In this document: in pieces, positions 3,911 through 25,613 of the stretch
Numbering within the stretch: the stretch's first letter is position 1
Layout: every line of letters starts with the position of its first letter
NCBI GenBank assembly: GCA_964487115.1
Contig: CAZAPD010000090.1
Coordinates: 7,994 to 71,993, forward strand
Length of the DNA stretch: 64,000 nucleotides
Reading direction: 5' to 3'
DNA from: an uncultured Thermococci archaeon
GTDB taxonomy: Archaea; Methanobacteriota_B; Thermococci; Thermococcales; Thermococcaceae
Position numbers and translations under genes: made by a program
Notes under the pieces: model-generated
What the model saw: the letters and a program-made list of their open reading frames with translations, nothing else
Databases searched by the model: none
What the model was told of the DNA's origin: nothing

Positions 3911-3964
3911 GATTTCAATGAAGGTTAAATTTAATAGGCTCAGCTCATACTCTCAGGGGGTGTC

Positions 3965-4381: not shown

Positions 4382-4384
4382 GTT

Positions 4385-4733: not shown

Positions 4734-4761
4734 ACCGGACAGGTCTCATTTAAATAGGCAT

Positions 4762-4839: not shown

Positions 4840-4889
4840 GCTTCCGGAAAGTCTTTAATCCTTCATGCAGAAACTTTTCTGGTGGTGTT

Positions 4890-9400: not shown

Positions 9401-9633
9401 GATATATAAAACACAAAAGTAGGTTTAAAGTGTTTTTGCCCTCATGCTCCACCCGGGTTTGACAATTTCTTTCAAACTCACAACTTAAGTATCAGTATTA
9501 GGCTAATTATCCAATGGGGAGTTCAAATAATACTGCATTCAACTATTAGAGTTGTATACAATTTCGTATAAGCCATGTTAGAAATCAAAACTCAGTTCCT
9601 CCAATCAATTTTAAACCTTGAGGAGGGAGAAAA

Positions 9634-9804
9634 ATGATTTGGGAAGCAGAGCCTGATATTGTGGAGTATATCAATAAAAAAACAGGCATTAATATCGACA
9701 CCATTATTACCATCCTCAATGCAGAGGAAGCTTTTTTCATGATTCAAATTCAGAAAGCCTTGAAGACAAAGAAGAAAAGAGTTAAGGAGGAGTTGGTAAT
9801 ATGA
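9634..9804 (+). CDS. 56-aa hypothetical protein, translationally coupled to the giant ORF
   Basis: Below the ORF-track size cut-off. Sequence is MIWEAEPDIVEYINKKTGINIDTIITILNAEEAFFMIQIQKALKTKKKRVKEELVI. Strong SD GGAGGGAG (9622-9629) lies 4 nt upstream of the ATG. Its TGA (9802-9804) overlaps the ATG (9801-9803) of the giant ORF. Confidence 0.45.
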   Translation: MIWEAEPDIVEYINKKTGINIDTIITILNAEEAFFMIQIQKALKTKKKRVKEELVI

Positions 9805-9875
9805 AAAGAGCAACGACTGCTATGGTGATATTCTTAATACTCTTTTCACTGTTTTCATATCCTCTCCTCGCAGCC
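9801..9875 (+). other. Signal peptide of the giant protein
   Basis: MKRATTAMVIFLILFSLFSYPLLAA: basic n-region, hydrophobic core, A-x-A-like end. Confidence 0.7.
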
Positions 9876-12800
9876 AATATGACTAAAAGTCTCAATTCAA
9901 GCAAAAAGGAAGCCCCGACACTAAGATTAGATGAGGCTAATAATCCAGATGTAGCTGTAACATCGCTTTCATATTCCTATGTAAATGGTAGTCAGATGAT
10001 TGTCTCTGCAAGTGTTGTAAATTACGGAAACACGTCAGAGCCATTTAACACAACGTTTATTGCAATAGAGCCTCAAGAGTTACCTGAACCAAGTGAGGTA
10101 CCGTTTACCTGGATAGATATAAGCCAAATAGTCCAAAATGCCGTTCAGGTTTATAGTGGGGAGTATGTTTCAAACTGGAGTGCTGTACTACATGGGGATG
10201 ATAGTTATTTCATATACAAGCTACCATTTGTTCTCAATTACTTTGGAAGAAAAATAGTAAATATTTCAGTGAGCACAAATGGATATATCGAGCTTTTGGG
10301 CAAATGGGAACAACCAAGGTTCAGATCATCGATAGGTATCTATCCCGATTTAGAAGACTATCACGAAGATGTCATATTGGCGTTGGATGGAGATTTGGAA
10401 ACAGATGACGGCTATCTTGCAGTTGTGGGTTTTGCTGACAAAGTCGTCATAGAGTGGTTTGGTTCAACATTTCAGGATTATAATTCCGCTGATTATCCGA
10501 TAAATGTTCAGGTCATCATCTTCAGGAATGGTACAATTAGATGGAGCTACAAATTCCTTAGGTATTCAAGTGAAGAGTATAACATGTTTGCAGGATATTT
10601 CTCAAAAGTCTCTCTTGAGGATAGGGTAATATCCCAAGGAGAAAGAAAAAGCTTTGAGGTGCAACTTCCAGAGGTTACACCATTGACTATCAAATCCCAG
10701 ACTCCGGGGCTCTTAAATGAAGAGGAGACCACCACTACTATTATGCTTCCAATCAGGGATTTCTATGTGGAAGCTATTGCCGATAATGAAGAAGAGCTTA
10801 ATGATTACTACAGATTCAACAACATTGGAGAATTGTGGATATGGCCTGGCGACTACTGGATAGAGAATGCGACTATCGGAAATCTCACGGTGGGGGAATA
10901 TGTGGAGATTAATTTTACAGTAAAGAGCACATCACACCATCCAGAAACAACAATGATAAAGTTGTTGATGAACAATGAAAGCGTTAGAACTCTTTATGTA
11001 AATAGCTTAGATTTCATAAACGGAACAGCAAGAAAAAGCTTTTCTTGGAGAGTTCAAGGGGGAAAATACAGCCTGATGCTCGAACTTCAAAATCAGGGCG
11101 ATATTAACACAGAGAATAACTTGTTCTTATTAGGAAATTATTCTCTGCCCCAACCTAATTTTAAAGTCTTAAACTATTCAATTTCTATTCCAAACTGCGT
11201 TGGAGATTTAGCGGTTATAACGGCAAACGTGACAAATGATGGAGATGCCAACTGGAGTGATGTTGAAGTTAAATTTGTAGTTGGATACTCAAGTTCAGGG
11301 CAACTACCTATATCCAGAATTTCCTACATATCCCTGCCAGCAGGTGATACTAAGGAGGTATCAGCTTCGTTCTCTTTACAACCGGGTAATATAAGTTGGA
11401 TATACGTCCAAATAGATCCCTACGACAGAGTTATTGAGAGGAATGAAAATGACAACATTCTAAATGAAACATATATGGCAGAAATTTATTATCCAGACTT
11501 TACCGTTGAGTCAATATACACTCCCACAAAACCAAACACCGGAAACAGTTATACTATTAACATTACCATAGACAATCTGGGTCAGTGCTACAATGGAGGT
11601 ATTTATACATACCTCTATGAAAACGGTTCCCGTGTTGGATACAAATATGTTACAGGGATTCTTACCAATCCCAAAAATATTAGTATAGGCTGGACACCGA
11701 GAGAACCGGGTTTAAGGAATTTGACAGTTGTAATTGATCCATATAACTCAATTCCTGAAAAAAACGAAGCAAACAATGCCCTTTCAAAAATGGTATTTGT
11801 TGGAGGCCCAGATTTAATCATAACCAATGTAACCCTGCTCAGCTTTGATGGAATGGCAGGCAGTACAGCCACATTTAACGTTACCATAAAGAACACTGGA
11901 GAAGCCTTTACAGATCCATTCTATGTTGTAGCTAAGAGCTCTCTGGGCTCGGATTATGAATATATAAGAGGTATGAACAAGAATGAGGAGAAATGGATTA
12001 TTCTACAGCCCATTATTAACGGTGGTTCTTACAACCTGACGTTTATAGTAGATTACACGCATAATATTCCAGAGACCTATGAGAGCAATAACATGGCTTT
12101 GTATCCTATAAATGTCCCACGTCCGAATTTTATCATTGAAAGAGTGGAGATTCCTGATAACACTGTTGGAAACGTGCCAATCAACATTACAATCAAAAAC
12201 ATTGGTGCTCCTTATAATGCTACCAGAACTAACGTGATTGTGAAAATACAAGCTTCTGGTTACTCGAGCCTATACTTCGGAGGCATAATTGGGAGCAATG
12301 AAAGTGTCTGGAAAACAGGAGAGGTCGATATCAATCCTCCTGGTGGAACTATCAATGTTACAGTAAATCCATCCAAATTCATAAACGAGACTCACTTCTC
12401 AGACAATTCATATGTCTTGGATCATACAACAGGATACCCGGATTTGACTGTAAAAATCTCCGTTCCAAATGACGTGTCTGCAGGTGAAAGAATTCCAGTA
12501 AATGTAACTGTCAAAAATATCGGAAATGCAACACTAAGAATCTCCAAATATTCCTATTGGTATTATTATCTGCCATTATCGGTGAAGATAGTGTATGAGA
12601 ATGGTGAAACATACACCAGCAGATATGAATTAGCCCCGGCTACATTGGATCCAAATACAAGTATTATGCGCATATCATATTTCACCCTCAATGGCGGTCT
12701 TAACATCCTGAATGCTACTGTTGATGAGAATAATAGGTGGAAAGAATCCAATGAAAGCAATAATTATGCCACAGTTTCATTAAATGTCGCCATGCCAGAT

Positions 12801-15800
12801 TTTGTTGTCTCTAATTATTCTATCCAGGAGAGCCTGCTAAATGGTAGCGCCTATCTCTATAAGACTTATAGTTTGCCAGTTAATGTGACAAATAATGGGG
12901 CAAACTTTAGTTCTTACGTATATGTTCAGCTTTTAGATAACGGTAAATACTCTTCAAGCAGGAGTGTTGGACCGCTGAATCATGGAGAAACAAAAGAAGC
13001 GTTCCTATACTATATCCCTGCTCCCGGCCAGCATCTAATTACGCTCCTCGTAGACCCAGGCAACAACTGGATAGAATCCAACGAAACGAACAACAACAGA
13101 ATTGTAGCGAATTTATCGTTTGGATATCCAGAGTTAGTTCCTCTTGGAGTTACATGGACACCCTATAACTTTACATCCGGAGACAGTGTAACTTTTAAAA
13201 CATATATCAAAAACACCGGGCAAGCGTTCTATAGAAGCTTTTCAGTGCGCTTTGAGGTGTGGAATGAGACTTCAAGACTGACATATGGATATGGCACTCC
13301 TAATCCGTACAGTTGGTACTTCAAGGAAAATGAAACGAAAGAATTTGACTGGAGATGGTATAATGCAAAACCCGGCAATTTAACTCTTAAAATATTCGTG
13401 GATTACTATAATGCTATACCAGAATCGAATGAGAGCAACAACGAATATGAAGCTTATCTTGGGTCAATAGGAACCCCAGATTTTGAATTGAGCAATTTGA
13501 CTGTTGAAAATCTGGAGTATGGCAGGTATGCCAGAATAAATGTTAATCTAAGGAATCTTGGAGAGGCTATCTATAAAAACTTCCCAATAATGTTTAACAT
13601 AAGCAACACCATACGATATGTGTGGATTTATGGCATGAATTCCAATGAATCAAAACTAATAGGCACAAAATGGTATGTTGATAAAGTCGGCAACATTACT
13701 ATTCAAGTAAGAGCTGATCCAAATAACGCCATAATCGAATCTGATGAAGATAACAATGAAGTTTCAGGCAGTTATTATATTGAGGCACCAGATTTGGTCA
13801 TATCCTCCTACAAGTGGATTGAAGATGACCTGAGCAGAGGATATCTGACCTTCAATATTAATGTTACGAATAATGGAGGAAACTGTTACAGAGGATTCTA
13901 CGTTGGAATGTATATCGATGGTGAGCACAAAGCGGATGCATGGATACCCTCACTCATGAAAGGGGAAACCAAAGAAGTTACAGTAAAATGGCACTTTAAT
14001 GTAGGCGGCACTCACAATGTAACTCTAAGAGCGGATACATACGACACCATAGAAGAGAGCGATGAAAATAACAATGAAGTCAATACACAGGTTACAATTG
14101 CGCTCCCTGACCTCACAATTGAGAGCATAAGTCTGCCCGAAAATATGAATGCAAATGCATATTACCCAATTAACATCACGATTAGAAATGATGGGCTTAG
14201 GGATGTTGATGAATACTTTACTGTAGCGGTATTCGATGGGGATAGATTAATAGGAAGCAAAGGGTATAACACACTTAAAGCCGGCCAAAGCACAGCAATA
14301 CAACTTCAGATAAGACCGTATCCCGGAAACAGGACTATCAAAGCTATAGTTGATTATTACAACCACGTCTATGAAGTGAATGAGAGCAATAATGAAGCAG
14401 AGGCAAAAACCTACGTCAGTGCTCCAAATCTCAAAATTTTGTCTGTCTATGTCGGAAATTACACTTTTGCAGGCGATGAGGCAGTATTAACGGCGACCCT
14501 TGAAAACACGGGAGATGCAGAAGCAAAGAACTTCTACATTGGATTTAAGGCTGGGGATGTATATATAGGGGCTGCTCGTGTGGAAAGCTTAGCTCCAAAC
14601 AGCATCAAAAACGTTTCAATAACCTGGAAAATACAGGGGGGAGAGTATCCAATATACGCAATTGCAGACTATGGAAACTATCTGCGTGAATGGAATGAAA
14701 GTGACAACACAGCCAGCACTCCTGTTAAGGTTCCCACTCCAGATTTAACTGTAAGCAATTTAACATGGAGAGGGGAAAAACAGGTAGGGGCATTTATCAA
14801 CTTTTCGGCTGTAATTTCAAACATAGGAAACCCCACGAAGCAAGAATTCTATGTTTCACTGTATGTAGGAAACGAAGCTGTAGACCATGTGAAAGTCAAC
14901 GGACTTGAGGCTGGAGCAAGCATGGAGATAGATTTCCATCCATGGAAGGCAAAATATGGAAACCTAACAGTGGAAGTTAAAGTTGATACTTGGAACTTCG
15001 TTACAGAATCTAATGAGAACAACAATGTGGTTTTAAGCACCATAAACATTAAGGATATCTCAGCTCCTACAATAATGCAGATGTTTCCGGCAAATGGTAG
15101 TATAACGAACAGGAATATAACCGGAGTTTATCTTGTAGATGACGGAGCCGGAGTGGACTACTCTCTGAGCAAAATAGATATTATCAAAAATGGCACTCAA
15201 ATACCTGGGCATAGTGAATTTAGTGGAGGCTGGCTGGTCTTTATACCTGATTCGAAGCTTGGAGATGGTGAATATACAGTAAGAATAAAAGCAGTTGATA
15301 AAGCAGGCAATTCGGCAAACTATACTTACACATACACTCTTGACACAACACCACCAAGAATAAAAATCGAAGGAGTTTCAAATGGAGCAACATATAACTC
15401 CACCATATTCCCCCAAGTAACAGTGATGGACATCCATTTGAAAGAGTATAGCACACTCCTTAATGGGAAACCCTATAACGGTGAGCCTATAAAATTCGAT
15501 GGAAGCTACGTCCTCGAAGTTACCGCCTCTGACGAAGCTGGAAACAGTGCTCATGAAAAGATAACGTTTACCCTCAATGGGATACCTCTACCACCCTCAT
15601 CCCTCACTGTCAAATCTGAAGAAGGCTATGCTATCTTAACATGGAAACCAAGCCCAAGTAAAGATGTTTTGGGGTATTTTGTATATGTTAACGGAGTTAA
15701 GGTAACCCCTGAACCAATAGAAAGGTTAAACTTTACCCTTCCATATCAGGAGGCTGTTTATGAAGTCTCAGCAGTTGATTTTGCAGGACATGAGAGTGAG

Positions 15801-18800
15801 AAGGTACTGGCAGAACCAATAATTGTTTCACTGGTCTCTCCTCAGAATCCCCTACTGGCAGAGAACTATCCCGCAAATCTCACATTCCACCTGAAAAATA
15901 TGAACGGAGCAATAAATGTAAGTGTAGATATACAGCTTATAGACAGCCTTGGAAATGTAATTAAAGATATAGACTATGGTCGTCTCCAATTTGCTCCAAA
16001 TGAGACCAAACAACTTGTCTTAACGTTTATAACCCCTGAGGACCTAAGGGCAGTGCAGGTTATAGTTTCAAACGGTGGTAAAAGCTATACAACATTCCCA
16101 GTAAAGACCTATCGGACATCTCTCCCAAACATAACCATCTCAAGCATACTTTCGAACTTCCCAGAAGTTATACCGGTAAATATAACAAACTTTGGTTCGG
16201 CTGAATTAACCGTCAGCGGTAGTGCTTCACTTGGAAGGATAACAGGTGAAACCAATTACATAAGGCTAAAACCCGGTGAAAATGGGACGTTATATATATA
16301 CCTAACACCCAAGGATATTGGAGAAGAAATACTCACACTCAATCTGACTTACAGAACCTTTGGAGATGCTAAAACATTCAAGATAACAAAAACAATAAAC
16401 GTCACCAGCCCAATTTTGAATCCAATAACCCTAAGTCATGAACAGATTGTCAAAGGCAAAATCGCTACAGTGTTTGCAATATTCAAAAATTTGGGCTCCG
16501 CTCCACTCACAGTAAACAAGGCTATTATCAGATTAGTAGATGGCAACTCGACAATAGTAGAGAAAACAGTGTATAAAACAGCAAGGTTATACAGTGAAGG
16601 TACTATCTCTTTCTACACAACTTTTGTAGTTCCAGCCAATGCTCCAGATTATGCGACATTAGAGGTTACAGTCTATGGTATGGATGGTTACAAATTAAAC
16701 TACTCAAAACGTGAAGAGGTGCAACTCCTTAAGCCTCCTTACAATGCTAACGTCACTATTGGCAAGGAGATTTACAGTCCCGGCGAAACCATACACGTAA
16801 CCGGCTATGCATTTAATGAAAGTGGATTCCTGCCAAATGTAACAGTAAAGCTCAGCTTTGCAAGAGATGATTTTGTCAGAACATTCCTTGTAAAAACGGA
16901 CTCATATGGAAGGTTTACATTTAACTTTACTCCGTATGCAACAGAAGGGGGAACATTTGTTATTAGCGCCACCCATCCAAAAGTTATTTCCCTTGAGCAT
17001 GACGCTCAGTTCAAGGTATTAGGTATCGTTCCATTGGTTAGACATTATACTCTGCAGGTACCAATAAAATTCAGATATAAACTCCAGATTCCACTGAGAA
17101 ACGTAGGTGACGAACCTCTGAATATTACGGTAACTTCAAATTCTTCAATATTCCATGTCGATATTCTTAAAAATATTACACTAATGCCCGGAGAAATAAA
17201 GAGAATCAGCGTCGTTATTTCATCAAATCAATCCAAGAACGAGACATTTAGTTTAACATTCAGAAGCAGGTATAACAATGAAAGTGTTCAGATAAACATC
17301 ATAACACTTCCAGAAAAACCTATCCTAAGAGCTTCACCGAAGGTAATTGATGTAGGAGTAAAGCCCGGAGAAGTCCTCACAAAAAGTGTGGAAGTGGAGA
17401 ATCTTGGATTTGCCCCAGCAGGGAATGTAACGATAATTCTTCCCAATTGGAGCTTTGTCACTCTTGCAAGCAACTTTACAACAATTGAAGCTGGAGAAAA
17501 AGAGGCTTTCACTATCTTTATAGCTCCAACGGAAAATAATACCGGTAAATTCACCGGATATGTGAAACTCTCAGCAAAAGACGCTGAGGTCAAGATACCC
17601 ATCAGAGTCATAGTTACCCCTAACCAGACAGGAAATGTGAGATTTATCTTGGTGGATCCTGAAGGAAACCCAATACCCAACGGTAAAATCACAATATCAA
17701 ACGAATATTATACAGAAACCAAAGTTGCAGATAAAAATGGAACAGTTTTATTCAGCAACGTTCCGGTAGGCCTTTACAAGTACTATGCGTTTGGAGAAGA
17801 AATCGTTCCAAAGGATGGCAATATTATAATAGATGCCGGAATTGAGAAGAATGTAACAGTGATTTTACTTAAATCTCCGTTAAAAGTGGAGTTTGAAGTA
17901 TATCCAGTAACAGTAGATGATGTCTATACCATAGTACATGAGATAGAATATGAGACGTACCTTACGATACCCTACCTCAAAGTTGATTATGGACAGGGAT
18001 ACATAATAGTCAACTCCTCATATCTAAAAGAACATGGTGTGGTAGAATTCAGGGGATACGTTACTATACAAAACACCAACCCCTATCTCTCAGTAGTTAA
18101 CGTAACGTTCAGACCAATAATAGTTGACCACTACACCGAAATAGTCTTTGCAGTGGATAGAATAGATGAGATAAAACCTGGGGAAAATGTAACCGTACCG
18201 TATGTCATAAGGGTGTATCAACACAGATCACCAGATATTGATCCATGTAAGCCTCAGAGGATAGTTATCAGCCTCCCATCATTGGCTTACTGTGAGGATG
18301 GCAAATGGCATGTGCCCCCTGCAGATGAAATTTCCTTTACAATAAAACTCGCATGTGTGGACTGTTTCTGGTCTATAACAGCTGTTATAAAAGATGTTGC
18401 AGTCGCTCTCAGTGGCCCATTAGGAGACGTTATCCAAGGAGGAGTCAAAATTGGGAAAGCAGGAATAATGATAGTGCGCACTTCCAAAGTTGTAGGAGAC
18501 GTTGCGGATAAAATCCTCAACATTCAGGGGCAGATAGATTTCGGAGCAAAGTGTTATGCAGCCGCCACAAGCGGTTGTCAGGAGGATGCAAGTAGCTGTA
18601 TTCAGAAAGTTGTTGATACTATAATCGGATTTATCCCAGTGGTGAATGATATTTGGGGTATCTACAACGATATAAAAGGTGCTATTGAAAACTGTGGAAA
18701 CTGTTTATTCAAAGATAGCTGTGTCAAAAAATGTACTCCAATACAGGTCCCTCCAATAAATTCAATTCCAATATACATTGGAATAAGCGGCGGCGGGGAT

Positions 18801-21800
18801 GTTGGAGGCATTGGCGGAGGAGGCGGAGATGGTATCAGTTATGAAGTCCAAGAATGTGAAAAAACAGAGGGTATAGCTCCAACACCCCAGAGTTCATCCA
18901 CCCGTATCAGTAAAGGAAGTATCCCAGATGTTAATGGAAAGAGCTGTGCATTTTTAAGAAATGTACCCGGAGAAGAGATATTACCAGCACAAACTGTTAA
19001 TCCCAATGAAGATCATAAAAACATGGTCTGCACTCGGATAAAACTTGAAATAAGACAGAGATTGACAATGGAGAGACAGGGTTTCAGAGCAGATTTGAAA
19101 TTCACCAACCTAGCAGGATACACAATAAGAAATCTAACGGTATACATTAAGTTCTTCGACGAAAACGGCACAGTTGCAGATGATAAATTCTTTGTCAGAG
19201 TGCTAACATTAGAGGGAATAAATTCCTTAAATGGTTCGTCTTTAGTTCCCAATGGAACAGGAATAGTCAATTGGCTGATAATACCAAAACCAGGAGCAGC
19301 TGGAGCATTGAGCACGCACTACACAGTCAAAGCATACATATTTGGAAAAGTCGGTAACACCACCTTGGAATACGAGAGCTGGCCTGAAGAGATAACTGTT
19401 GAACCTATGCCTATCCTACAGTTGGATTACATGCTCCCGAGATACGTGTATGGTGACAATCCAAAAACGCCAGAGGTAGAACCCCCAATACCCTTTGTCT
19501 TTGGAGTCAGAGTGAAGAACATAGGATACGGAGATGCCAAAAATCTGAGAATAGAGTCTGCTCAACCAAAGATAATAAGCAGTAACGTCCCAGCATATAT
19601 ATCATTCCGCATAATTGGAACATATATTAACGGAATTAAAGCGGCCAACAGTCTAACAGTTGACTTTGGAGATATACCTGCAGGGGAGAGCGCAACCGCA
19701 GCATGGATAATGACCGCTCAAGTAAGTGGGGAATTCGTGAGCTACAACGCTACATTTATCCATGAGGACCTATTGGGTGGAAACGAAACATCTCTAATAA
19801 GAACCCTAAGAACTCACACCCTATTCAAAGCTTTCAATGACACCATAAGAAATGATGGGATGATGGACTTTTTGGTTGATGATAATAGAGATCTGATTCC
19901 CGAGAGGATAATAGACTCCACTGGAGCAGATTTCGAGGTACTCCATGTAAATGCCACGATGAGAACAGAGTCAGACATGAAGATAATCGTACCAACAGCC
20001 ATATTTATAGACAAATGGACATACATAGGACTCAAATTCAATCCCGGGACTACGTTCAGGATTGTGCGCTCAGATGGCAGTATGCCCGTTTCATACTGGT
20101 ATGATGGTAAAACACTCCATATTTTAGATTATGGGACTCCAGAATTTTACTATATTAAGAGCAATAGAAAACCAGTGGCTCAAGCGACAATAACCTCACC
20201 GACAATTGCCAATAGGAGCGTAACTTTCGACGCTTCCTTAAGTTATGATCCGGATGGAAAAATAACGGATTATGCATGGAAAATAGGTAATCTAACCTTC
20301 CATCGGAAAGTATTGAACTACACCTTCACCAAACCGGGAATTTATAATGTCACACTTACCGTTAGAGATGATGGTGGTCTCTCAGCAACTAAATCCTTTA
20401 TTGTTACAGTTTATCTCGGGCCAAGATTTACTGAGAACTTCAGTGTGTCACCAAAATTGGGAGTTGTACCATTCAACATAACCGCAGTGTTAAATGTAAC
20501 AAATAGTGGGGATGCTGAAGGCATATACTCAGCAGCATTTTCAGTTGATGGAAAGCTCTTAAACATTTCCCAGGTAAGCATACAGCCAGATACAACGTAT
20601 TCCTTCGAATTCCGTGCGAAAATTTCAGAAATCGGTTATCACAATGTGACCATTAATAACTTCACTCAAGTCGTGGAAGCATACAAGAACGTTAGTATAT
20701 CTCAAATTAACAGGCAGAATTATTCAAAATACTTTGGATATTACAATTCGCTTCAATGGGATGAATTTAAGAAAGATTTTGAAAACTGGAGTGCCAACAT
20801 TCTTTCAAATATCACACTGCCTGTGGAGGAATTTGACAGGGTCATCTACATGAAAACAGGAAACTGGAGTATTGCAGAATATATTGAGAATCTTAACAAG
20901 ACTGAAGAGTCAGGATGGATTAAAGCTGTTTATACAAGAAATGTTACTTTAATTGGAATTACCAAGTGGAATTATACAGAGCTCCACCTAACACAAGTTG
21001 CAGAACTCTATGGAAACGCCACACACAAACTTGATGTAACAGCTCCTTCACTAACGGTGAGTCCAAGTAGCGGAATCTATCAATATATCCCAGAATTCAA
21101 TGTCACAGTCTGCGATGAAAGTAATGTCACCGTATGGGGCATTAGTATTACCAAAGGGACAAAAACGGCATTCACTTTGATTTCCATCAACAACACATGT
21201 TCCCTATGGAGAGGAATCTTACCACTGGATATTGCCAATAATACGGTAACAATAATAGCCGAAGACGAATTTGGAAACAGGGCTAATGAGACCCTGTGGA
21301 TATACATTAATCCAACAACACCAATAATCTACATTGAAAGTCCCAAATCCACAGTTTACAACAAAAAAACGCTTTGGTTCAATTATACAGTTATAGATAC
21401 CGATTTAATTGGTGTGAGAGCCTATTTAGATGGAACTCTAACAAGTACCTCAGTCAATGTCTCCAAACAACTAACAATGGACTACGGATACCATAACTTT
21501 ACAGTTACTGCATGGGATGTCTCATATAATGTTAGTAGAACCGTAATCTTCAGGATAAACAAACCCCCTATAGCCAACTTCACATGGACAGCAAACCATC
21601 TGAGGGTTAATTTCACGAGCACAAGTACAGATGAAGACGGCATAATACGTTATCTATGGGATTTCGGTGATGGTTCAAGTTCAAATGAAACAAACCCAAC
21701 CCATGTATATCCAAGGGGCGGCAGGTATAATGTAACACTAACAGTATGGGATGCCTACAGTGCCACTTCCACGATAACCAGAGCTATCCAAGTATTTGCA

Positions 21801-23198
21801 AATGTTAGCGAGAACAAAGAAGAAAAACACTTATTCACAAAATACTTTGGATTTTACAACACATCTTCATGGGAACCATTTAGAGAAGATTTTGGGCAGT
21901 GGAGCAGCGATATACTTAAAAACATGACTATACCAGAAGAGGAGCTCGATAGTATTTACTCCACAATTATTTCAAATTGGAGTCTCACATCCTACAGGGA
22001 AAACCTGATTATAGGAGCTTCTACAGGCTGGATAAACGCTACTTACAGAAGAGAGGTAATCATTAAAGGCTTCAGGGGATATGAAAATATTACACTGTCA
22101 ATAATTCAAACAGTTCATCTGTTCGGCAACGCAACACATGTTCCCGATACAGAGCCTCCCGAGATATCCATAACCTATCCAGAAAATAAGACTTACGACC
22201 ACAATATCACGTTAATTAAAGTTCAGGTCTATGATGTTTCTCCAGTTAAATGGGTCAGAGCGGAGCTGGATGGGAGAATATACCCAATGAATCACGTAAA
22301 TGATTCATGGTTGGCAACCGTTAATATCGGAGATGGAAAACACCTTCTCACAGTGTATGCCTCGGATGTATACGGGAATACTGGATATACCAACATTACA
22401 TTCACAGTCAATACCAGCATCAGAATAGTGGAAAGCAACAATACTACAGTTCAAGTGATTCCCGGTGAAGCTGAGAGTCAAATCCAAATCGGTGGCAGCT
22501 CAGTGACTATTAATATTAGCATTCAAGGTGTTGAATATTCATTTATATTCCATGCCCAGCCCTTGATTACAGTAGATGAGAGGATTAACAGCAAACCATG
22601 GATGATGATTTACAGTAACGCACAAATGGGAGAAACAGAAGAAAAAACTGAGGAGATCACCCAAGGAGGGACGGTTTATAGAGTGAGAAGAATTACAATT
22701 GAACTTCAAGTGGCGGAAGATGGATACGCTGTTTTAGTAGTACCGCTCCATCAGATGAAGCCAACGGAGATTAAGATAGATAAGGATGGCGTCGAGTACA
22801 AATTAACAAGAGAAAAGAGGGAATATGGTTACTTTGGAGTATTTGGGGACTATTTATACATAGTGGTTTTTGATGATCCAGTTATTAAAATAACAATGGA
22901 AGAGATAGACAGAACACGCACAATAGAATTACATAAAAGAATATGGACCAATCTCGGCATCATATGGGAAGCATATTATCTCAGAATGAATGAAAGATTC
23001 AACGAACTGGAAGCCAACATAACAAATATAAGCAGAATCCAGAAAGCTTTGAGCCTCCATAAGAAAGCACAAAGCTACTTTGATAAAGCAAATACCTACG
23101 ATCCAAGGATTAATCCAGCGATGTATGCAATATACATGAGAAAAGCATATATCACAGAAAAAAGGGCCCTGAAGCTACTTATTGAAAATCTCCATTAA
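9801..23198 (+). CDS. Giant secreted multi-domain surface protein (4465 aa): CARDB-like x13, Ig/FN3-like, CarboxypepD_reg-like, Cys-rich module, PKD x2
   Basis: Uninterrupted 13,398-nt ORF. AAGGAGG lies 10 nt upstream of the ATG. N-terminal signal peptide, domain motifs as listed in the sub-features, and very frequent N-x-S/T sequons. T6 terminator-like run just downstream. Confidence 0.9.
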   Translation: MKRATTAMVIFLILFSLFSYPLLAANMTKSLNSSKKEAPTLRLDEANNPDVAVTSLSYSYVNGSQMIVSASVVNYGNTSEPFNTTFIAIEPQELPEPSEVPFTWIDISQIVQNAVQVYSGEYVSNWSAVLHGDDSYFIYKLPFVLNYFGRKIVNISVSTNGYIELLGKWEQPRFRSSIGIYPDLEDYHEDVILALDGDLETDDGYLAVVGFADKVVIEWFGSTFQDYNSADYPINVQVIIFRNGTIRWSYKFLRYSSEEYNMFAGYFSKVSLEDRVISQGERKSFEVQLPEVTPLTIKSQTPGLLNEEETTTTIMLPIRDFYVEAIADNEEELNDYYRFNNIGELWIWPGDYWIENATIGNLTVGEYVEINFTVKSTSHHPETTMIKLLMNNESVRTLYVNSLDFINGTARKSFSWRVQGGKYSLMLELQNQGDINTENNLFLLGNYSLPQPNFKVLNYSISIPNCVGDLAVITANVTNDGDANWSDVEVKFVVGYSSSGQLPISRISYISLPAGDTKEVSASFSLQPGNISWIYVQIDPYDRVIERNENDNILNETYMAEIYYPDFTVESIYTPTKPNTGNSYTINITIDNLGQCYNGGIYTYLYENGSRVGYKYVTGILTNPKNISIGWTPREPGLRNLTVVIDPYNSIPEKNEANNALSKMVFVGGPDLIITNVTLLSFDGMAGSTATFNVTIKNTGEAFTDPFYVVAKSSLGSDYEYIRGMNKNEEKWIILQPIINGGSYNLTFIVDYTHNIPETYESNNMALYPINVPRPNFIIERVEIPDNTVGNVPINITIKNIGAPYNATRTNVIVKIQASGYSSLYFGGIIGSNESVWKTGEVDINPPGGTINVTVNPSKFINETHFSDNSYVLDHTTGYPDLTVKISVPNDVSAGERIPVNVTVKNIGNATLRISKYSYWYYYLPLSVKIVYENGETYTSRYELAPATLDPNTSIMRISYFTLNGGLNILNATVDENNRWKESNESNNYATVSLNVAMPDFVVSNYSIQESLLNGSAYLYKTYSLPVNVTNNGANFSSYVYVQLLDNGKYSSSRSVGPLNHGETKEAFLYYIPAPGQHLITLLVDPGNNWIESNETNNNRIVANLSFGYPELVPLGVTWTPYNFTSGDSVTFKTYIKNTGQAFYRSFSVRFEVWNETSRLTYGYGTPNPYSWYFKENETKEFDWRWYNAKPGNLTLKIFVDYYNAIPESNESNNEYEAYLGSIGTPDFELSNLTVENLEYGRYARINVNLRNLGEAIYKNFPIMFNISNTIRYVWIYGMNSNESKLIGTKWYVDKVGNITIQVRADPNNAIIESDEDNNEVSGSYYIEAPDLVISSYKWIEDDLSRGYLTFNINVTNNGGNCYRGFYVGMYIDGEHKADAWIPSLMKGETKEVTVKWHFNVGGTHNVTLRADTYDTIEESDENNNEVNTQVTIALPDLTIESISLPENMNANAYYPINITIRNDGLRDVDEYFTVAVFDGDRLIGSKGYNTLKAGQSTAIQLQIRPYPGNRTIKAIVDYYNHVYEVNESNNEAEAKTYVSAPNLKILSVYVGNYTFAGDEAVLTATLENTGDAEAKNFYIGFKAGDVYIGAARVESLAPNSIKNVSITWKIQGGEYPIYAIADYGNYLREWNESDNTASTPVKVPTPDLTVSNLTWRGEKQVGAFINFSAVISNIGNPTKQEFYVSLYVGNEAVDHVKVNGLEAGASMEIDFHPWKAKYGNLTVEVKVDTWNFVTESNENNNVVLSTINIKDISAPTIMQMFPANGSITNRNITGVYLVDDGAGVDYSLSKIDIIKNGTQIPGHSEFSGGWLVFIPDSKLGDGEYTVRIKAVDKAGNSANYTYTYTLDTTPPRIKIEGVSNGATYNSTIFPQVTVMDIHLKEYSTLLNGKPYNGEPIKFDGSYVLEVTASDEAGNSAHEKITFTLNGIPLPPSSLTVKSEEGYAILTWKPSPSKDVLGYFVYVNGVKVTPEPIERLNFTLPYQEAVYEVSAVDFAGHESEKVLAEPIIVSLVSPQNPLLAENYPANLTFHLKNMNGAINVSVDIQLIDSLGNVIKDIDYGRLQFAPNETKQLVLTFITPEDLRAVQVIVSNGGKSYTTFPVKTYRTSLPNITISSILSNFPEVIPVNITNFGSAELTVSGSASLGRITGETNYIRLKPGENGTLYIYLTPKDIGEEILTLNLTYRTFGDAKTFKITKTINVTSPILNPITLSHEQIVKGKIATVFAIFKNLGSAPLTVNKAIIRLVDGNSTIVEKTVYKTARLYSEGTISFYTTFVVPANAPDYATLEVTVYGMDGYKLNYSKREEVQLLKPPYNANVTIGKEIYSPGETIHVTGYAFNESGFLPNVTVKLSFARDDFVRTFLVKTDSYGRFTFNFTPYATEGGTFVISATHPKVISLEHDAQFKVLGIVPLVRHYTLQVPIKFRYKLQIPLRNVGDEPLNITVTSNSSIFHVDILKNITLMPGEIKRISVVISSNQSKNETFSLTFRSRYNNESVQINIITLPEKPILRASPKVIDVGVKPGEVLTKSVEVENLGFAPAGNVTIILPNWSFVTLASNFTTIEAGEKEAFTIFIAPTENNTGKFTGYVKLSAKDAEVKIPIRVIVTPNQTGNVRFILVDPEGNPIPNGKITISNEYYTETKVADKNGTVLFSNVPVGLYKYYAFGEEIVPKDGNIIIDAGIEKNVTVILLKSPLKVEFEVYPVTVDDVYTIVHEIEYETYLTIPYLKVDYGQGYIIVNSSYLKEHGVVEFRGYVTIQNTNPYLSVVNVTFRPIIVDHYTEIVFAVDRIDEIKPGENVTVPYVIRVYQHRSPDIDPCKPQRIVISLPSLAYCEDGKWHVPPADEISFTIKLACVDCFWSITAVIKDVAVALSGPLGDVIQGGVKIGKAGIMIVRTSKVVGDVADKILNIQGQIDFGAKCYAAATSGCQEDASSCIQKVVDTIIGFIPVVNDIWGIYNDIKGAIENCGNCLFKDSCVKKCTPIQVPPINSIPIYIGISGGGDVGGIGGGGGDGISYEVQECEKTEGIAPTPQSSSTRISKGSIPDVNGKSCAFLRNVPGEEILPAQTVNPNEDHKNMVCTRIKLEIRQRLTMERQGFRADLKFTNLAGYTIRNLTVYIKFFDENGTVADDKFFVRVLTLEGINSLNGSSLVPNGTGIVNWLIIPKPGAAGALSTHYTVKAYIFGKVGNTTLEYESWPEEITVEPMPILQLDYMLPRYVYGDNPKTPEVEPPIPFVFGVRVKNIGYGDAKNLRIESAQPKIISSNVPAYISFRIIGTYINGIKAANSLTVDFGDIPAGESATAAWIMTAQVSGEFVSYNATFIHEDLLGGNETSLIRTLRTHTLFKAFNDTIRNDGMMDFLVDDNRDLIPERIIDSTGADFEVLHVNATMRTESDMKIIVPTAIFIDKWTYIGLKFNPGTTFRIVRSDGSMPVSYWYDGKTLHILDYGTPEFYYIKSNRKPVAQATITSPTIANRSVTFDASLSYDPDGKITDYAWKIGNLTFHRKVLNYTFTKPGIYNVTLTVRDDGGLSATKSFIVTVYLGPRFTENFSVSPKLGVVPFNITAVLNVTNSGDAEGIYSAAFSVDGKLLNISQVSIQPDTTYSFEFRAKISEIGYHNVTINNFTQVVEAYKNVSISQINRQNYSKYFGYYNSLQWDEFKKDFENWSANILSNITLPVEEFDRVIYMKTGNWSIAEYIENLNKTEESGWIKAVYTRNVTLIGITKWNYTELHLTQVAELYGNATHKLDVTAPSLTVSPSSGIYQYIPEFNVTVCDESNVTVWGISITKGTKTAFTLISINNTCSLWRGILPLDIANNTVTIIAEDEFGNRANETLWIYINPTTPIIYIESPKSTVYNKKTLWFNYTVIDTDLIGVRAYLDGTLTSTSVNVSKQLTMDYGYHNFTVTAWDVSYNVSRTVIFRINKPPIANFTWTANHLRVNFTSTSTDEDGIIRYLWDFGDGSSSNETNPTHVYPRGGRYNVTLTVWDAYSATSTITRAIQVFANVSENKEEKHLFTKYFGFYNTSSWEPFREDFGQWSSDILKNMTIPEEELDSIYSTIISNWSLTSYRENLIIGASTGWINATYRREVIIKGFRGYENITLSIIQTVHLFGNATHVPDTEPPEISITYPENKTYDHNITLIKVQVYDVSPVKWVRAELDGRIYPMNHVNDSWLATVNIGDGKHLLTVYASDVYGNTGYTNITFTVNTSIRIVESNNTTVQVIPGEAESQIQIGGSSVTINISIQGVEYSFIFHAQPLITVDERINSKPWMMIYSNAQMGETEEKTEEITQGGTVYRVRRITIELQVAEDGYAVLVVPLHQMKPTEIKIDKDGVEYKLTREKREYGYFGVFGDYLYIVVFDDPVIKITMEEIDRTRTIELHKRIWTNLGIIWEAYYLRMNERFNELEANITNISRIQKALSLHKKAQSYFDKANTYDPRINPAMYAIYMRKAYITEKRALKLLIENLH
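10848..15056 (+). repeat. Array of 13 tandem, diverged CARDB-like domain units (period about 312-357 nt)
   Basis: Each unit opens with P[DN][FL]xhxxh (PDFTVESIY, PDLIITNVT, PDLTVKISV...). Each contains N.G (NDGDA, NTGEA, NIGNA...) and ends in an acidic/Asn cap. The caps are NTENN (about 11110), ERNENDN (11447), EKNEANN (11770), TYESNN (12082), ETHFSDNS (12395), ESNESNN (12752), ESNETNN (13082), ESNESNN (13433), ESDEDNN (13746), ESDENNN (14063), VNESNN (14382), WNESDN (14700) and ESNENNN (15015). Confidence 0.8.
15057..15830 (+). other. Ig-like domains followed by an FN3-like domain
   Basis: DISAPTI...YTVRIKAVDKAGNS...DTTPPRIKIEGV...LEVTASDEAGNS, then PPSSLTVKSEEGYAILTWKPSPSKDVLGYFVYVNG (FN3-like). 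Confidence 0.5.
17631..17872 (+). other. Carboxypeptidase-regulatory-like (CarboxypepD_reg) beta-sandwich domain
   Basis: GNVRFILVDPEGNPIPNGKITISNEYYTETKVADKNGTVLFSNVPVGLYKYYAF. Confidence 0.6.
18240..19030 (+). other. Cys-rich module with embedded Gly-rich linker (18784-18840)
   Basis: 14 Cys within about 265 aa (CKPQ, AYCED, ACVDC, AKCY, SGCQ, SSCI, ENCGNC, DSCVKKC, QECE, KSCA, VCTR) in a protein otherwise almost Cys-free. Includes GISGGGDVGGIGGGGGDGIS. Confidence 0.7.
20170..20415 (+). other. PKD domain 1
   Basis: VTFDASLSYDPDGKITDYAWKIGN...YNVTLTVRDDGGLSAT. Confidence 0.8.
21558..21797 (+). other. PKD domain 2
   Basis: VNFTSTSTDEDGIIRYLWDFGDGSSSNETNPTHVYPRGGRYNVTLTVWDAYSAT. Confidence 0.85.
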
Positions 23199-23206
23199 CT
23201 TTTAAA

Positions 23207-23212
23207 TTTTTT
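23207..23212 (+). terminator. Oligo-T (T6) archaeal-type terminator candidate after the giant ORF
   Basis: TTTAAATTTTTTAC lies 9 nt after the stop codon. Confidence 0.4.
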
Positions 23213-23310
23213 ACAGATTTTAATTTATGTTATGTTGCATCCTATCCTCCATGATTTCTGCACCATCATATCTTGGGATGTTCTAAATTCGCTAAATATA
23301 ATACGATGGA

Positions 23311-23324: not shown

Positions 23325-23351
23325 GTGCATAATTACATAGAGGGTTCATGT

Positions 23352-25613
23352 ATGAGTATGAAAGCCTCATTATTAATGAGATCATTATCCAACGAAACTA
23401 ATCTGCATATACTCTCCATACTTAAATCCGGCGCGTTTAATCCCAGAGAACTTGCCCGCATTCTGCAAAAAGATGAAACGGATATTTCAAGAAGACTAAG
23501 ACTGCTGGAAAAGGCAGGATTAGTGAAAGGTCAGTGGATGCGAATAGGAAAAAAGAATGTAAAAGTGTATTCGCTGAAGGTAGATGAAGTCAAAATAAGC
23601 TTCAAGCCAACAGAAGTGATAATAAGAACGACTACAAATGAAAACTACCAGATACCTATATTTGACAGGAAAGTTCCTGAGGTTAATATGTTCTTTGGAC
23701 GGCAAGCTGAAATAGAAAAAATAACATCAACTCCAGCTCGTGTCATACTCATCTATGGAATAGCAGGTATTGGAAAGACAACTCTAATAGCAAAAATATT
23801 CAATAATGCTTTTTGGTACCAGATAAATGAGCTCGATAGCTTTGACTATATCATATGGCAGTTTGGTTTATACCTCAACACCCTCGGATATTCTCTACTC
23901 CTTGATTATCTACGCAGCGGAGGGAAAAATGAGAGGGATATATTCGAACTCATACTCGATGGAATGGAAACAACGGGAGCTCAGGTAGTTATTGATGATG
24001 CCCATAAATGCTCTGACGATAAGATAATACAGCTCTTTACGTATCTGACACCAAGGCTTCAAAAAGCAAAGCTTGTAATAATATCAAGGGAAAGGATAAA
24101 TTTAGGTTTGAAAAATGTGATGTATTTACATCTCAAAGGTTTAAGTGCAGAGGATGCCTATCAGCTTTTGATATCCAAAGGAGCAAGAATAGAACCGGAA
24201 AAATTTGCAGAGATCTACCACATAAGTTATGGACACCCTCTAATATTGCTCCTATTTGCTGAAACATATCCTGATGAAGAGGTCAAGATGCACAACTTCC
24301 TTGATTTCTTGTTTACTGAAATCTACCAAAAGCTGAAAGAGGATGAAAAGTTAATGATTCAAATACTCTCTCTTTTTGATGAACCTTTAGAATACGAGGA
24401 GATAAGGGCCTTATATCAAAAAAAGAATGTTTTTACAGTTCTATACTCCCTTACAAACAAGGGAATAGTGGAAAAAAGGGGAGAGGCTTATGCGCTCCAT
24501 GATCTACTGAGAGGACTTGCAAAAGAACTTACAGACATCGATGAGCGAGAATACTACTTAAAATACATTAATCATCTGCTGACAAAGAAAACAGCCAAAG
24601 CTTTTATGAAAGCTCTCCAGTATGCCGTCAAACTTGGGGACGAGGAGAAGATTAGGGAACTAATCGAAATCAGGCTAAGAAGATTCAAACGGATAATTCA
24701 AGATTTTCCAGATTCGTATATGCGAATTTTAATTCAAATCAAGGATAATCCTTATGCCAAAGAGGAGCTCGGTAATATATACTTCCAGAAAGGTCTATTC
24801 AATAAAGCCCTTACTCTCTGGCTTGAAATTAAGGACAAAGTCGAAGGTATTCACAAAGGCGATGTTCTAAGCTCTTTGGTTGATATATACATAGAATTAA
24901 ACGAATTTGAAAAAGCTGAGGAATATCTCAGGGAACTGGAAAAACTTTTAGCCAAAACGCCAGATTTAAAAATTCAACTTTGGTATTATATCCAACTTAC
25001 AAAATTTGAATATTACAAAAATAACCATGAAAATGCTCTCAAAAGCGCATTTAAAGAGCTTGAAATAGTAAGGAAAATGAGCCCATATCCAGAGCTTGAA
25101 AGTCTCGTATTACTTCACATCGGGGATATATATACAGGCATGGAAAAGGTTAAAGATGGAATCAAATATTACATCCAATCCCTCAAACTGGCTAAGGCAT
25201 ATAATCTGGCATTCTTAGAGCATGTCTCATATATGGAGCTAACAAAAGCATATTTCATCCTTAAAGATTATAGAAGAGCTATAGAATATGGAACAAAAGC
25301 AGTTCAATACTTCATCAGGGTCAGAAACTATCGTAGGGCTATCGACGCATTGGCATATAGATGCCTCTCATACGCTGGATTACTAAAGCTCAAAGAAGCC
25401 GAAAAGGATGCCGAAGAAATGATAAAGATAGCCCAAACAACAAACTATCCATTAGCATGGGCAGGATACATATTCTTAGGAGTAATTAAAGAGTTAAGGG
25501 GAGAGAATGGGCAGGAATATTTCAAACTGGGTGAAGAGAGACTGAAAGAATATCCTTGGTTGTATGAGTCAGTTATGGAAGAGGTTAACAGGGTGGAATT
25601 AAAGGAGGAGTAG
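23352..25613 (+). CDS. Winged-HTH + STAND (NB-ARC/archaeal-ATPase-like) P-loop NTPase + TPR-repeat protein, paralog 1
   Basis: ORF track 23325-25613. The ATG at 23352 is preferred because it gives the same 13-aa lead before NETNL as paralog 2. ArsR-like wHTH (NLHILSILKSGAFNPRELARILQKDETDISRRLRLLEKAGLV). FFGRQAEIEKI then Walker A GIAGIGKTT. Walker B VVIDDAH. NB-ARC-type GxP motif YGHPLILLL. C-terminal about 300 aa are TPR-like helical repeats. Confidence 0.8.
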   Translation: MSMKASLLMRSLSNETNLHILSILKSGAFNPRELARILQKDETDISRRLRLLEKAGLVKGQWMRIGKKNVKVYSLKVDEVKISFKPTEVIIRTTTNENYQIPIFDRKVPEVNMFFGRQAEIEKITSTPARVILIYGIAGIGKTTLIAKIFNNAFWYQINELDSFDYIIWQFGLYLNTLGYSLLLDYLRSGGKNERDIFELILDGMETTGAQVVIDDAHKCSDDKIIQLFTYLTPRLQKAKLVIISRERINLGLKNVMYLHLKGLSAEDAYQLLISKGARIEPEKFAEIYHISYGHPLILLLFAETYPDEEVKMHNFLDFLFTEIYQKLKEDEKLMIQILSLFDEPLEYEEIRALYQKKNVFTVLYSLTNKGIVEKRGEAYALHDLLRGLAKELTDIDEREYYLKYINHLLTKKTAKAFMKALQYAVKLGDEEKIRELIEIRLRRFKRIIQDFPDSYMRILIQIKDNPYAKEELGNIYFQKGLFNKALTLWLEIKDKVEGIHKGDVLSSLVDIYIELNEFEKAEEYLRELEKLLAKTPDLKIQLWYYIQLTKFEYYKNNHENALKSAFKELEIVRKMSPYPELESLVLLHIGDIYTGMEKVKDGIKYYIQSLKLAKAYNLAFLEHVSYMELTKAYFILKDYRRAIEYGTKAVQYFIRVRNYRRAIDALAYRCLSYAGLLKLKEAEKDAEEMIKIAQTTNYPLAWAGYIFLGVIKELRGENGQEYFKLGEERLKEYPWLYESVMEEVNRVELKEE

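Follow-up and report, generated by a model that had tools for sequence, protein, structure and literature searches.

The protein tg1749 (ACS34251.1) of Thermococcus gammatolerans has 4481 aa and a mass of 495,920 Da and is recorded as a 'conserved hypothetical protein'; PH0954 was the only homolog given for it among the five other Thermococcales genomes compared, none being listed for T. kodakarensis, T. onnurineus, P. abyssi, and P. furiosus (PMC2718504 Table S1). PH0952 of Pyrococcus horikoshii (PDB 6MFV), whose locus tag is close to that of PH0954, is a putative MalT-like STAND transcription regulator with a TPR sensor (PMC6468293); the part of that source available to us concerns the mechanism of its autoinhibition, and names no DNA site, inducer, or target. 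A literature search found no paper dealing functionally with PH0954, tg1749, or their ortholog Py04_0995 of Pyrococcus sp. ST04. A paper on the T. barophilus secretome was considered as a source on the giant protein and set aside, as it concerns a different CARDB protein of 76 kDa. In this study, we analyzed a further member of this group, the giant gene at positions 9801-23198 (+) of a 64-kb stretch of DNA from an uncultured Thermococci archaeon (contig CAZAPD010000090.1; the whole stretch is called the window below), together with its neighboring genes and its relatives. The best explanation of the results, which we consider rather probable, is that the gene encodes an inducible, horizontally transferred giant adhesin or matrix glycoprotein that would be switched by STAND regulators.

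The giant gene was a single ATG-initiated open reading frame (ORF) of 4465 aa and 13.4 kb with zero internal stops, as had been stated in a first-pass annotation of the window made from the letters alone. Its ATG, the first start codon past an in-frame upstream stop, lies directly 3' of a strong Shine-Dalgarno-like AAGGAGGAG; within ATGA, it overlaps with the stop codon of the preceding ORF of 56 aa. Right after its stop codon, a T-rich tract at 23200-23216 (+), read from the sequence, is the probable transcript end. The window DNA is part of a metagenome contig (ENA ERZ27262694, 77.6 kb), and the identical protein was found on three contigs, with records in NCBI, JGI, Logan, and ENA. No tandem or long direct DNA repeats were found in the gene, so that the CARDB array described below is unlikely to be a point of mis-assembly, and 15 relatives were colinear with the protein from end to end in an alignment. 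At the sequence level, these three observations confirm that the giant ORF is a real gene and make an assembly artefact unlikely.

Eighteen relatives scored 1942-8370 bits; 17 of them are 4121-4646 aa long, and one (P0017) has 2921 aa. Full-length relatives (4100-4650 aa) occur in T. atlanticus (4522 aa, 45% identity), T. gammatolerans EJ3, T. sp. ES12, T. waiotapuensis, and several Thermococcus metagenome-assembled genomes (MAGs); further named orthologs are A3L01_05375 of T. barossii and Py04_0995. The closest relative, with 80% identity, came from another metagenome contig, and the identity to the orthologs in named species was 38-45%. Gene order together with sequence similarity assigns the source of the window to the Thermococcaceae. 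The 15-sequence alignment had few gaps and 21-68% identity per 100-aa bin, which places the window protein in the orthogroup of tg1749 and PH0954. The first-pass annotation had regarded the gene as exceptional for its size; it is indeed very large, but less singular than was implied, since colinear orthologs of about 4100-4650 aa conserve this size and include those of isolate genomes. The tg1749/PH0954/Py04_0995 orthogroup is Thermococcales-specific and is accessory, because most Thermococcales genomes compared have no tg1749 homolog. Over 4489 aa, Py04_0995 and the T. barossii protein shared 91% identity, far more than vertical descent would be expected to leave given the divergence of Pyrococcus and Thermococcus. 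Such identity across genera indicates a probable recent horizontal transfer of the giant gene between Pyrococcus sp. ST04 and T. barossii.

In the window, about 18.5 kb between the two class I fumarate hydratase genes are occupied by a small ORF, the giant gene, and two regulator genes. The gene for the fumarase beta (C-terminal) subunit stands on the left (8897-9400, -; Fumerase_C, E 4.3e-41) and that for the alpha (N-terminal) subunit on the right (27888-28751, -; Fumerase, E 4.1e-97). From left to right, the order is a palindrome, a TAAGTAT box, the small ORF, the giant gene, and two genes for regulators composed of a winged helix-turn-helix (wHTH), a STAND ATPase-type core, and TPR. The small ORF (9634-9804, +), whose stop overlaps the giant ATG, encodes 56 aa without a signal peptide, and orthologs of it (48-71 aa) were present directly upstream of every giant ortholog examined. 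V10, I13, T17, G18, L28, A30, E31, E32, and L43 were invariant in their alignment, from which the protein appeared by eye to be helical with an HTH-like pattern; searches of Pfam, NCBIfam, PADLOC, and the PDB gave no match.

The same set of genes was found at other places in other genomes. It lies between the fumarase genes in the window, in T. atlanticus (locus L002), and in L004, the contig of the 80% relative; in T. sp. ES12 (L006) and L008, it lies between an M20 peptidase gene and a metallo-beta-lactamase-fold gene, and in L013, viewed on its upstream side, next to the same M20 peptidase gene. In T. waiotapuensis (L007), the set is rearranged, and the regulator is inverted and about 5 kb away. 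The regulator gene tg1748 adjoins tg1749 in T. gammatolerans. The orthogroup thus has a conserved neighborhood consisting of the small ORF, a PH0952-type regulator, and the palindrome. The GC content at third codon positions was 0.36-0.37 in the three large genes of the window, as compared with 0.42-0.51 in flanking genes. The small ORF, the giant gene, and the regulator(s) therefore form a unit that stays together at different chromosomal sites, that is, a horizontally mobile cassette, and neither flanking direct repeats nor an integrase marking it was found. The mobile cassette, the PH0952-type regulators, the operator-like palindrome, and the size-conserved orthologs in isolates all go beyond the first-pass annotation.

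Several further observations concern the cassette and its insertion site. The fumarase beta gene must now use its own promoter in 9401-9456, beside the palindrome. A tRNA-Ala (CGC) gene at 4762-4839, upstream of a block of Ldh_2, malic enzyme, and CoA-transferase genes, lies about 4.6 kb away from the edge of the cassette, too far to be an obvious integration target. In the T. atlanticus lineage (L002, 7643-9214 and 9220-9852; L012, 7505-9130 and 9127-9756; and L018), two extra genes, both absent from the window, are located between the palindrome and the small ORF. The first encodes a secreted protein of 523-541 aa, in which three related Pfam families, none reaching its threshold (E 0.005-0.15), weakly indicate a transglutaminase-like Cys-His core. 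The product of the second has ~210 aa, a signal peptide, and a transmembrane segment at its C-terminus; it might serve as a membrane anchor or partner. A second, unrelated giant stands nearby in two genomes: in T. sp. ES12, a protein of >4058 aa with Big_7, Big_13, and Beta_helix is encoded about 6 kb downstream of the cassette (L006, 29233-33497), and in T. gammatolerans, tg1747 (4610 aa, 'orphan') adjoins tg1748.

The left edge of the cassette contains a perfect palindrome, GTTTGA-N9-TCAAAC (9457-9477, unstranded; core GGGTTTGA...TCAAAC), the full form of which in the window is GTTTGA-CAATTTCTT-TCAAAC. A global alignment of the upstream regions showed little, and the palindrome was found by inspection and pattern search. 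GTTTGA-N7-11-TCAAAC had a single exact match in the 64-kb window, where 0.07 was expected. The palindrome also occurred exactly once at the equivalent place in L002, L004, L006, L008, and L012-L017, the last six being further metagenome loci fetched with the N-terminal head domain of the giant protein, and the copy of T. waiotapuensis had one mismatch. It was accordingly present in all 12 loci with upstream DNA (11 exact and one near-exact). In the four loci measured, it was 42-57 nt from the start codon of the divergent neighbor, whichever gene that was. No second copy was found near the regulator genes.

At 8-9 nt 3' of the palindrome, the sequence TAAGTAT (9487-9493, +) emerged from the comparison of loci as a putative TATA-like element. 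T-A-x-G-T-A was invariant in 11 of 11 loci compared (five of them aligned), in the form TAAGTA(T/G/C), and about 30 nt 3' of this box, most loci had a ribosome-binding site of the GGTG type and the first cassette gene. In T. atlanticus and L012, the palindrome is at the start of the operon, ahead of the two extra genes, and hence it marks the operon start and not the giant gene itself. An activator-dependent archaeal promoter would be expected to have such a palindrome immediately ahead of a weak TATA-like box, and we regard GTTTGA-N9-TCAAAC as a candidate operator or upstream activating site. An 11-codon ORF (MGSSNNTAFNY and a stop) at 9520-9555 of the window, about 43 nt past the palindrome, looks like the decayed original start, the small ORF beginning at that position in other loci.

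The only recognizable DNA-binding proteins of the cassette are those of the wHTH-STAND type. Regulator 1 (23325-25613, +; an alternative gene call starts at 23352 and gives 753 aa) has an ArsR-type wHTH, NB-ARC/STAND, and TPR, and regulator 2 (25613-27904, +) is its paralog; the two genes, of 762 and 763 aa, are 48% identical to each other. Both matched PH0952 (PDB 6MFV) over ~650 residues across the NOD, the arm, and the TPR sensor, regulator 1 with E 8.7e-202 and regulator 2 with E 6.6e-161. HTH_5 and HTH_20 at the N-terminal wHTH, NB-ARC, and TPR were the Pfam families found, consistent with homology to PH0952 across the NOD and TPR regions and in the N-terminal ArsR-type wHTH. PADLOC, applied to the regulators and the small ORF, returned HTH and TPR pieces only and no match to an Avs-type system. 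A link of PH0952-type proteins to a giant gene and to the palindrome is proposed here from the arrangement of this locus.

Subsequently, the domain anatomy of the giant protein was examined. Behind the signal peptide, an N-terminal head of no known family (aa 29-348; 9885-10844, +) was conserved among the orthologs, with 59% mean column identity in the alignment and the shared motifs LPFxLNFFGR, STNGYIELL, EWFGST, and NGTIRWSY; it had no Pfam match at E<=1 and no PDB sequence match in a profile search. A CARDB profile built from the giant protein matched the two ends of the head weakly (E 0.018 and 0.074), and one possible reading of the head is a 14th CARDB unit into which a domain of ~190 aa has been inserted. 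The head is followed by the CARDB array (aa 349-1744; 10845-15032, +), for which PF07705 scored 503.7 bits against a cutoff of 22.7, in 11 stretches, and the self-built profile, iterated on the giant protein itself, gave exactly 13 tandem units. The next part (aa 1745-2815; 15033-18245, +) is a mixed region of Ig-like beta-sandwiches. Big_13 exceeded the Pfam threshold at aa 1792-1849; weak fn3, MG2-like, and HYDIN-type Ig matches were sub-threshold, and CarboxypepD_reg at aa 2617-2688 scored 27 bits without reaching the cutoff of 32.3 (E 5.6e-6).

Fourteen of the 19 Cys residues of the protein were within aa 2816-3077 (18246-19031, +), adjoining a GGGGGD run. This Cys-framed variable region holds two CxxC motifs, a Gly run, and a Ser/Thr-rich linker. 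In the alignment of 15 relatives, C2816, C2831, C2852, C2855, C2965, C2968, C2974, C3019, and C3077 were invariant and C3049 nearly so, and the sequence between the invariant Cys residues was the least conserved part of the giant protein (21-33% identity). About 100 aa between them are absent from the window copy and its 80% relative and present in all other orthologs. These two proteins also have five extra Cys residues, namely C2918, C2926, C2933, and C2978 in the Cys-framed region and C1362 in the CARDB array.

Two PKD domains, at aa 3455-3537 (20163-20411, +) and aa 3920-4005 (21558-21815, +; Pfam span 3934-3994), were recognized by PKD_4 (104.1 bits, cutoff 27) and PKD (75.5 bits, cutoff 23.5) (PF00801 / PF18911), and they matched PKD domains of the PDB with E down to 7.9e-17. 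Self-comparison indicated that both are part of an internal duplication: aa 3455-3546 resembles aa 3920-4005, and a unit at aa 3622-3826 (20664-21278, +; no Pfam match) recurs at aa 3993-4193 (21777-22379, +) with 31% identity (E 1.5e-33). The first-pass annotation had read a signal peptide, 13 CARDB units, Ig-like domains, a CarboxypepD_reg-like domain, a Cys/Gly-rich core, and two PKD domains from the sequence; all of them were recovered, the CARDB count exactly, with CARDB, PKD, and Big_13 above and the other Ig-like domains and CarboxypepD_reg below the Pfam cutoffs.

Between the Cys-framed region and the first PKD domain, aa ~3074-3455 (19020-20165, +) constitute a tri-beta-sandwich module that was characterized by an exhaustive HMMER search and an AlphaFold2 model. 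With clusters at 50% identity, 4155 representatives matched at E<=1e-3 and 1558 of them at E<=1e-30; over roughly 310-380 aa, the identity of the relatives was ~40-42%. A Cys that is nearly invariant and a Gln, a Phe, and an Asn that are fully so characterize the first strands. In most of these proteins, of 400-2500 aa, the module is at residues ~25-350 directly behind the signal peptide. A Pfam scan of 35 of them showed downstream parts consisting of Big_9, He_PIG, cadherin-like, TSP3, fn3, and PKD repeats, and no Pfam or NCBIfam model covered the module in the giant protein or, as far as the Pfam scan of the 35 extends, in its relatives. Those with names are 'hypothetical proteins' of Pseudomonadales, Paludibacteraceae, Dolichospermum, and Isosphaerales. 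The Thermococcales giants thus share the module sequence, including these conserved residues, with the bacterial proteins, but they carry it internally, ~3070 aa from the N-terminus and behind the Cys-framed region, whereas in the bacterial proteins it usually comes right behind the signal peptide and is followed by Big_9, He_PIG, cadherin, or TSP3 repeats.

Word-indexed protein searches yielded five matches with the module alone and 31 with a 31-sequence module alignment, all with uninformative names, and a scan of genome contigs with the module yielded a single partial contig of a Thermococcaceae MAG; it was from the exhaustive search that the size of the family became apparent. The module was also located inside the giant bacterial proteins P0035 and P0051, which carry RHS / YD-shell Pfam families, and one short module protein adjoins RHS genes; among the bacterial gene contexts viewed, which were heterogeneous, no common partner was seen. 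The AlphaFold2 model from a 36-sequence alignment was all-beta, with a pLDDT of 91.4 and a pTM of 0.86, and is consistent with three beta-sandwich domains. With this model, Foldseek retrieved from the PDB only generic tandem-Ig proteins such as pilins and integrins (TM about 0.2), and a profile search of the PDB gave nothing significant.

In the AlphaFold2 model of the C-terminal domain (aa ~4207-4465; 22419-23195, +), which had a pLDDT of 90.2, beta structure that includes a long hairpin precedes a bundle of three helices (aa 4371-4404, 4410-4430, and 4439-4464). The last two helices are basic (K+R 10, D+E 3), the domain is sequon-poor, and a terminal motif, YAIYMRKAYLLEK, is conserved among the relatives. 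Foldseek gave no match at E<0.001 in the PDB or the viral BFVD, and no PDB sequence match was found. P0008 and P0014 (T. waiotapuensis) have aberrant or truncated C-termini where the others have the conserved bundle; together with the rearranged T. waiotapuensis cassette, this may indicate decay in some lineages. The first-pass annotation had found the segments at 19.0-20.1 kb and 22.4-23.2 kb unrecognizable. Both indeed remained unmatched in Pfam, NCBIfam, and PDB sequences, and structure prediction followed by Foldseek, which it had recommended, gave confident folds with no informative structural match. Judged from the models, the two segments are folded domains without a described family.

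Secretion of the giant protein is well supported by its sequence. Residues 1-28 (9801-9884, +) form a Sec-type signal peptide, and aa 4-28 were the only hydrophobic segment of the protein (Kyte-Doolittle, 19-residue window). In all orthologs, an initial M-[KR][KR] is followed by ~12-15 residues of hydrophobic character and by a cleavage context of small residues, as in an ordinary Sec signal peptide. A class III (pilin-type) signal peptide was considered and rejected, the 'KRA' context not being conserved and the orthologs having ordinary Sec signals. The protein has 156 N-x-S/T sequons, compared with 53.7±6.5 in shuffled sequences, a ~3-fold excess; the reversed motif, used as a control, occurred 57 times, cytoplasmic neighbor proteins had 0-4 sequons each, and the orthologs keep 111-163. 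The five sequons that had been noted within the first 100 aa were counted again, and the similar density proposed for the rest of the protein took the form of this strong enrichment, although no sequon was present in the 262 aa of the Cys-framed region and two in the last 95 aa. Because the Sec signals and the sequon excess are kept in the orthologs, the protein is probably secreted and heavily N-glycosylated, in agreement with the first reading of the window.

That reading had also described a helical C-terminal tail without a hydrophobic anchor, which both hydropathy and the structure model bear out. Hydropathy revealed no C-terminal hydrophobic segment, and regular-expression searches found no LPxTG, PGF-CTERM, or lipobox motif, as would be expected of a covalently or lipid-anchored protein. 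S-layer families were missing among the Pfam and NCBIfam matches at E<=0.01, which, with the lack of a C-terminal anchor, sets the protein apart from the archaeal S-layer class.

If the locus is an inducible adhesin or matrix system, its most likely mode of operation is as follows. The STAND regulators would sense a ligand through the TPR sensor, multimerize, and bind GTTTGA-N9-TCAAAC just upstream of the weak promoter, and would in this way switch on the operon of the small ORF and the giant gene, activation appearing preferable to repression. The product of ~0.5 MDa would be exported via Sec with removal of the signal peptide. The mature protein would be an extended, heavily N-glycosylated string of dozens of beta-sandwiches, composed of the head, 13 CARDB units, the Ig-like and Cys-framed regions, the module, the duplicated PKD block, and a sugar-poor C-terminal domain, and it would act outside the cell as a long adhesin or matrix fiber. 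Its attachment to the envelope, or to other copies of itself, would probably depend on the C-terminal domain, which would be free of glycans, and not on a lipid or transmembrane anchor. We consider it a reasonable conjecture that the basic C-terminal bundle retains the protein by electrostatic or protein-protein contact, because anchor motifs are absent and the C-terminal domain and the Cys-framed region are poor in sequons.

Several points weigh against this interpretation. The protein may simply be released into the medium, which is equally possible. No ligand-binding or catalytic domain was identified in it, and it is the architecture that suggests an adhesive or matrix role. The promoter geometry is less clean in the window and L004, because about 140 nt containing the decayed short ORF intervene between the TAAGTAT box and the small ORF. 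The palindrome could be bound by the product of the small ORF or by an unlinked factor. In the proteome of T. gammatolerans grown in rich medium, tg1749, tg1748, and tg1747 are all recorded as 'MS-Proof: no' (PMC2718504 Table S1); this speaks weakly for conditional expression, with silence in standard culture, and it could also reflect poor recovery of a huge, glycosylated, secreted protein.

Other functions were weighed against that of an adhesin or matrix glycoprotein. The giant might instead capture polysaccharide, sulfur, or chimney mineral as a scaffold for nutrition rather than for cell-cell or biofilm adhesion. Secreted hydrolases commonly carry PKD, CARDB, and CarboxypepD_reg-type domains as accessory modules, and in the PDB the two PKD domains matched those of collagenase and endoglucanase. 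MalT-type STAND regulators classically govern carbohydrate regulons (PMC6468293). We nevertheless hold such a scaffold to be distinctly unlikely, as Pfam revealed no catalytic or recognized carbohydrate-binding module and no transporter or hydrolase gene was linked to the cassette in any locus viewed. Quite improbable, in our judgment, is a weapon or sensor in inter-microbial conflict or immunity, such as a polymorphic-toxin-like protein or a STAND-guarded effector. It would accommodate the module within P0035 and P0051 and beside RHS genes, the frequent use of STAND NTPases as immune sensors, the accessory and mobile nature of the cassette, and the precedent of VARTIG, another conflict-like module of Thermococcales with an Ig protein (PMC8416519). 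Against this, Pfam and NCBIfam gave no toxin, nuclease, protease, or pore-forming family in the giant, its C-terminus is colinear and conserved and not polymorphic, the genes that come next downstream are regulators and not small immunity-like genes, and the effector part of the STAND proteins is a DNA-binding wHTH, for which PADLOC reported no Avs-type system. As a class, polymorphic toxins were rejected for the same lack of a toxin family and of a small downstream gene, and for a conserved C-terminal domain without a PDB or viral fold match. We give very little credence to a protease trap of the alpha-2-macroglobulin or thioester-containing protein (TEP) type, or a complement-like opsonin. 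Archaeal alpha-2-macroglobulin homologs exist (PMC8416519), and an MG2 match was seen at aa 2319-2405, but at 26.4-31.9 bits it was below the cutoff of 32.8, and there was no thioester-domain match, no CxEQ motif, and no architecture resembling a bait region; membership in this family is essentially refuted.

Two further alternatives concern the DNA itself. The palindrome may be bound by the small-ORF product or a host factor, or it may mark a recombination or insertion boundary of the cassette, and not be a STAND operator. In favor of this are its position at the very left edge of the cassette, close to the divergent start codon, the helical, HTH-like pattern of the small ORF, which is always present, and the lack of a second copy near the regulator genes. 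We regard this as unlikely: in T. atlanticus and L012, two extra genes have not displaced the palindrome from the start of the operon, its spacing to the TATA-like box is fixed, as that of an operator would be, neither an integrase nor a matching repeat at the right end was found, and the small ORF had no significant match to a DNA-binding family. The probability that the giant ORF is an assembly artefact or a decaying pseudogene is practically negligible. Although the window comes from a metagenome contig and P0008 and P0014 have aberrant C-termini, an identical protein on three contigs in four sources, the lack of DNA repeats able to cause mis-joins, the full-length colinear orthologs of isolate genomes, and the invariance of key Cys residues and motifs among the relatives all argue for an intact gene.

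Two observations lie outside the cassette. In L004, at 4256-5655, UPF0175, DUF3368, and two unknown genes stand between YjbQ and Ldh_2, and none is there in the window or in T. atlanticus; this is another small variable spot in the neighborhood. A 456-aa ORF at 44671-46041 of the window, with no Pfam match at E<=1e-5, belongs to a second low-GC stretch (GC ~0.39 over 44-48 kb) and sits among housekeeping genes for 2-oxoacid:ferredoxin oxidoreductase subunits, a ParA/NUBPL-type ATPase, DUF2110, and TFE alpha.

Orthologs of the giant gene are present in public genomes as 'hypothetical protein', so that the gene is not unique in itself. What is new is the structure and mobility of the cassette, a candidate operator and operon, and two domain families that had not been described, of which one is very widespread among bacteria. 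GTTTGA-N9-TCAAAC, present in 12 of 12 loci, and the operon behind it offer PH0952-type regulators a concrete, testable candidate operator and target. The module represents a large unannotated family of >1500 clusters, mostly at the mature N-terminus of bacterial secreted proteins. How hyperthermophiles stick to chimneys and to each other is poorly understood, and a mobile, conditionally expressed glycoprotein of 0.5 MDa is a plausible player. A more far-reaching version of our proposal, which we put forward only tentatively and consider rather doubtful as a whole, is a self-contained, mobile, inducible adhesin system in which PH0952-type regulators act on the palindrome, the module and the C-terminal domain are two new domain families, and the module serves thousands of secreted proteins of bacteria as their functional head, perhaps with a reactive center or a cross-link within the molecule.

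Finally, the locus was compared with the systems that resemble it. The Thermococcales giants tg1749, PH0954, Py04_0995, A3L01_05375, and that of T. atlanticus agree with the window protein in domain order and in the framework of invariant Cys residues; they likewise start with a signal peptide and are enriched in sequons, and their genes have a small ORF upstream and a PH0952-type regulator gene beside them. The window protein differs from them in the ~100 aa missing from its Cys-framed region, and its cassette in having two regulator paralogs. VARTIG (arCOG07710) is likewise Thermococcales-specific, accessory, secreted, rich in Ig and CARDB domains, and located in variable islands, and is described as a 'large' Ig-domain protein (one example has been mapped to residue 824 or beyond) whose C-terminal Ig domain is hypervariable and which is followed by variable downstream genes (Makarova et al. 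2021, PMC8416519). The giant, in contrast, has about 4500 aa and a conserved, colinear C-terminus, and in the loci compared STAND regulators stand downstream, so that it was not assigned to VARTIG. Among proteins of other prokaryotes, giant non-fimbrial adhesins with tandem Ig-like domains are known in SiiE of Salmonella and LapA of Pseudomonas, and archaeal halomucin is a giant secreted glycoprotein. Proteins of this kind are very large, extracellular, repetitive, non-catalytic strings of beta-sandwiches that are accessory, island-borne, and tightly regulated. The giant resembles the SiiE/LapA-type adhesins in size, in the string of beta-sandwiches, and in the lack of catalytic domains. It differs in using Sec and not type I secretion, in lacking a Lap-type retention module, in having no RTX or Ca-tandemer repeats above threshold in the NCBIfam and Pfam scans, and in its CARDB and PKD stalk, N-glycosylation sequons, archaeal host, and different class of regulator. 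The giant is therefore a new member of an existing, unstudied orthogroup within the giant Ig-repeat surface proteins.

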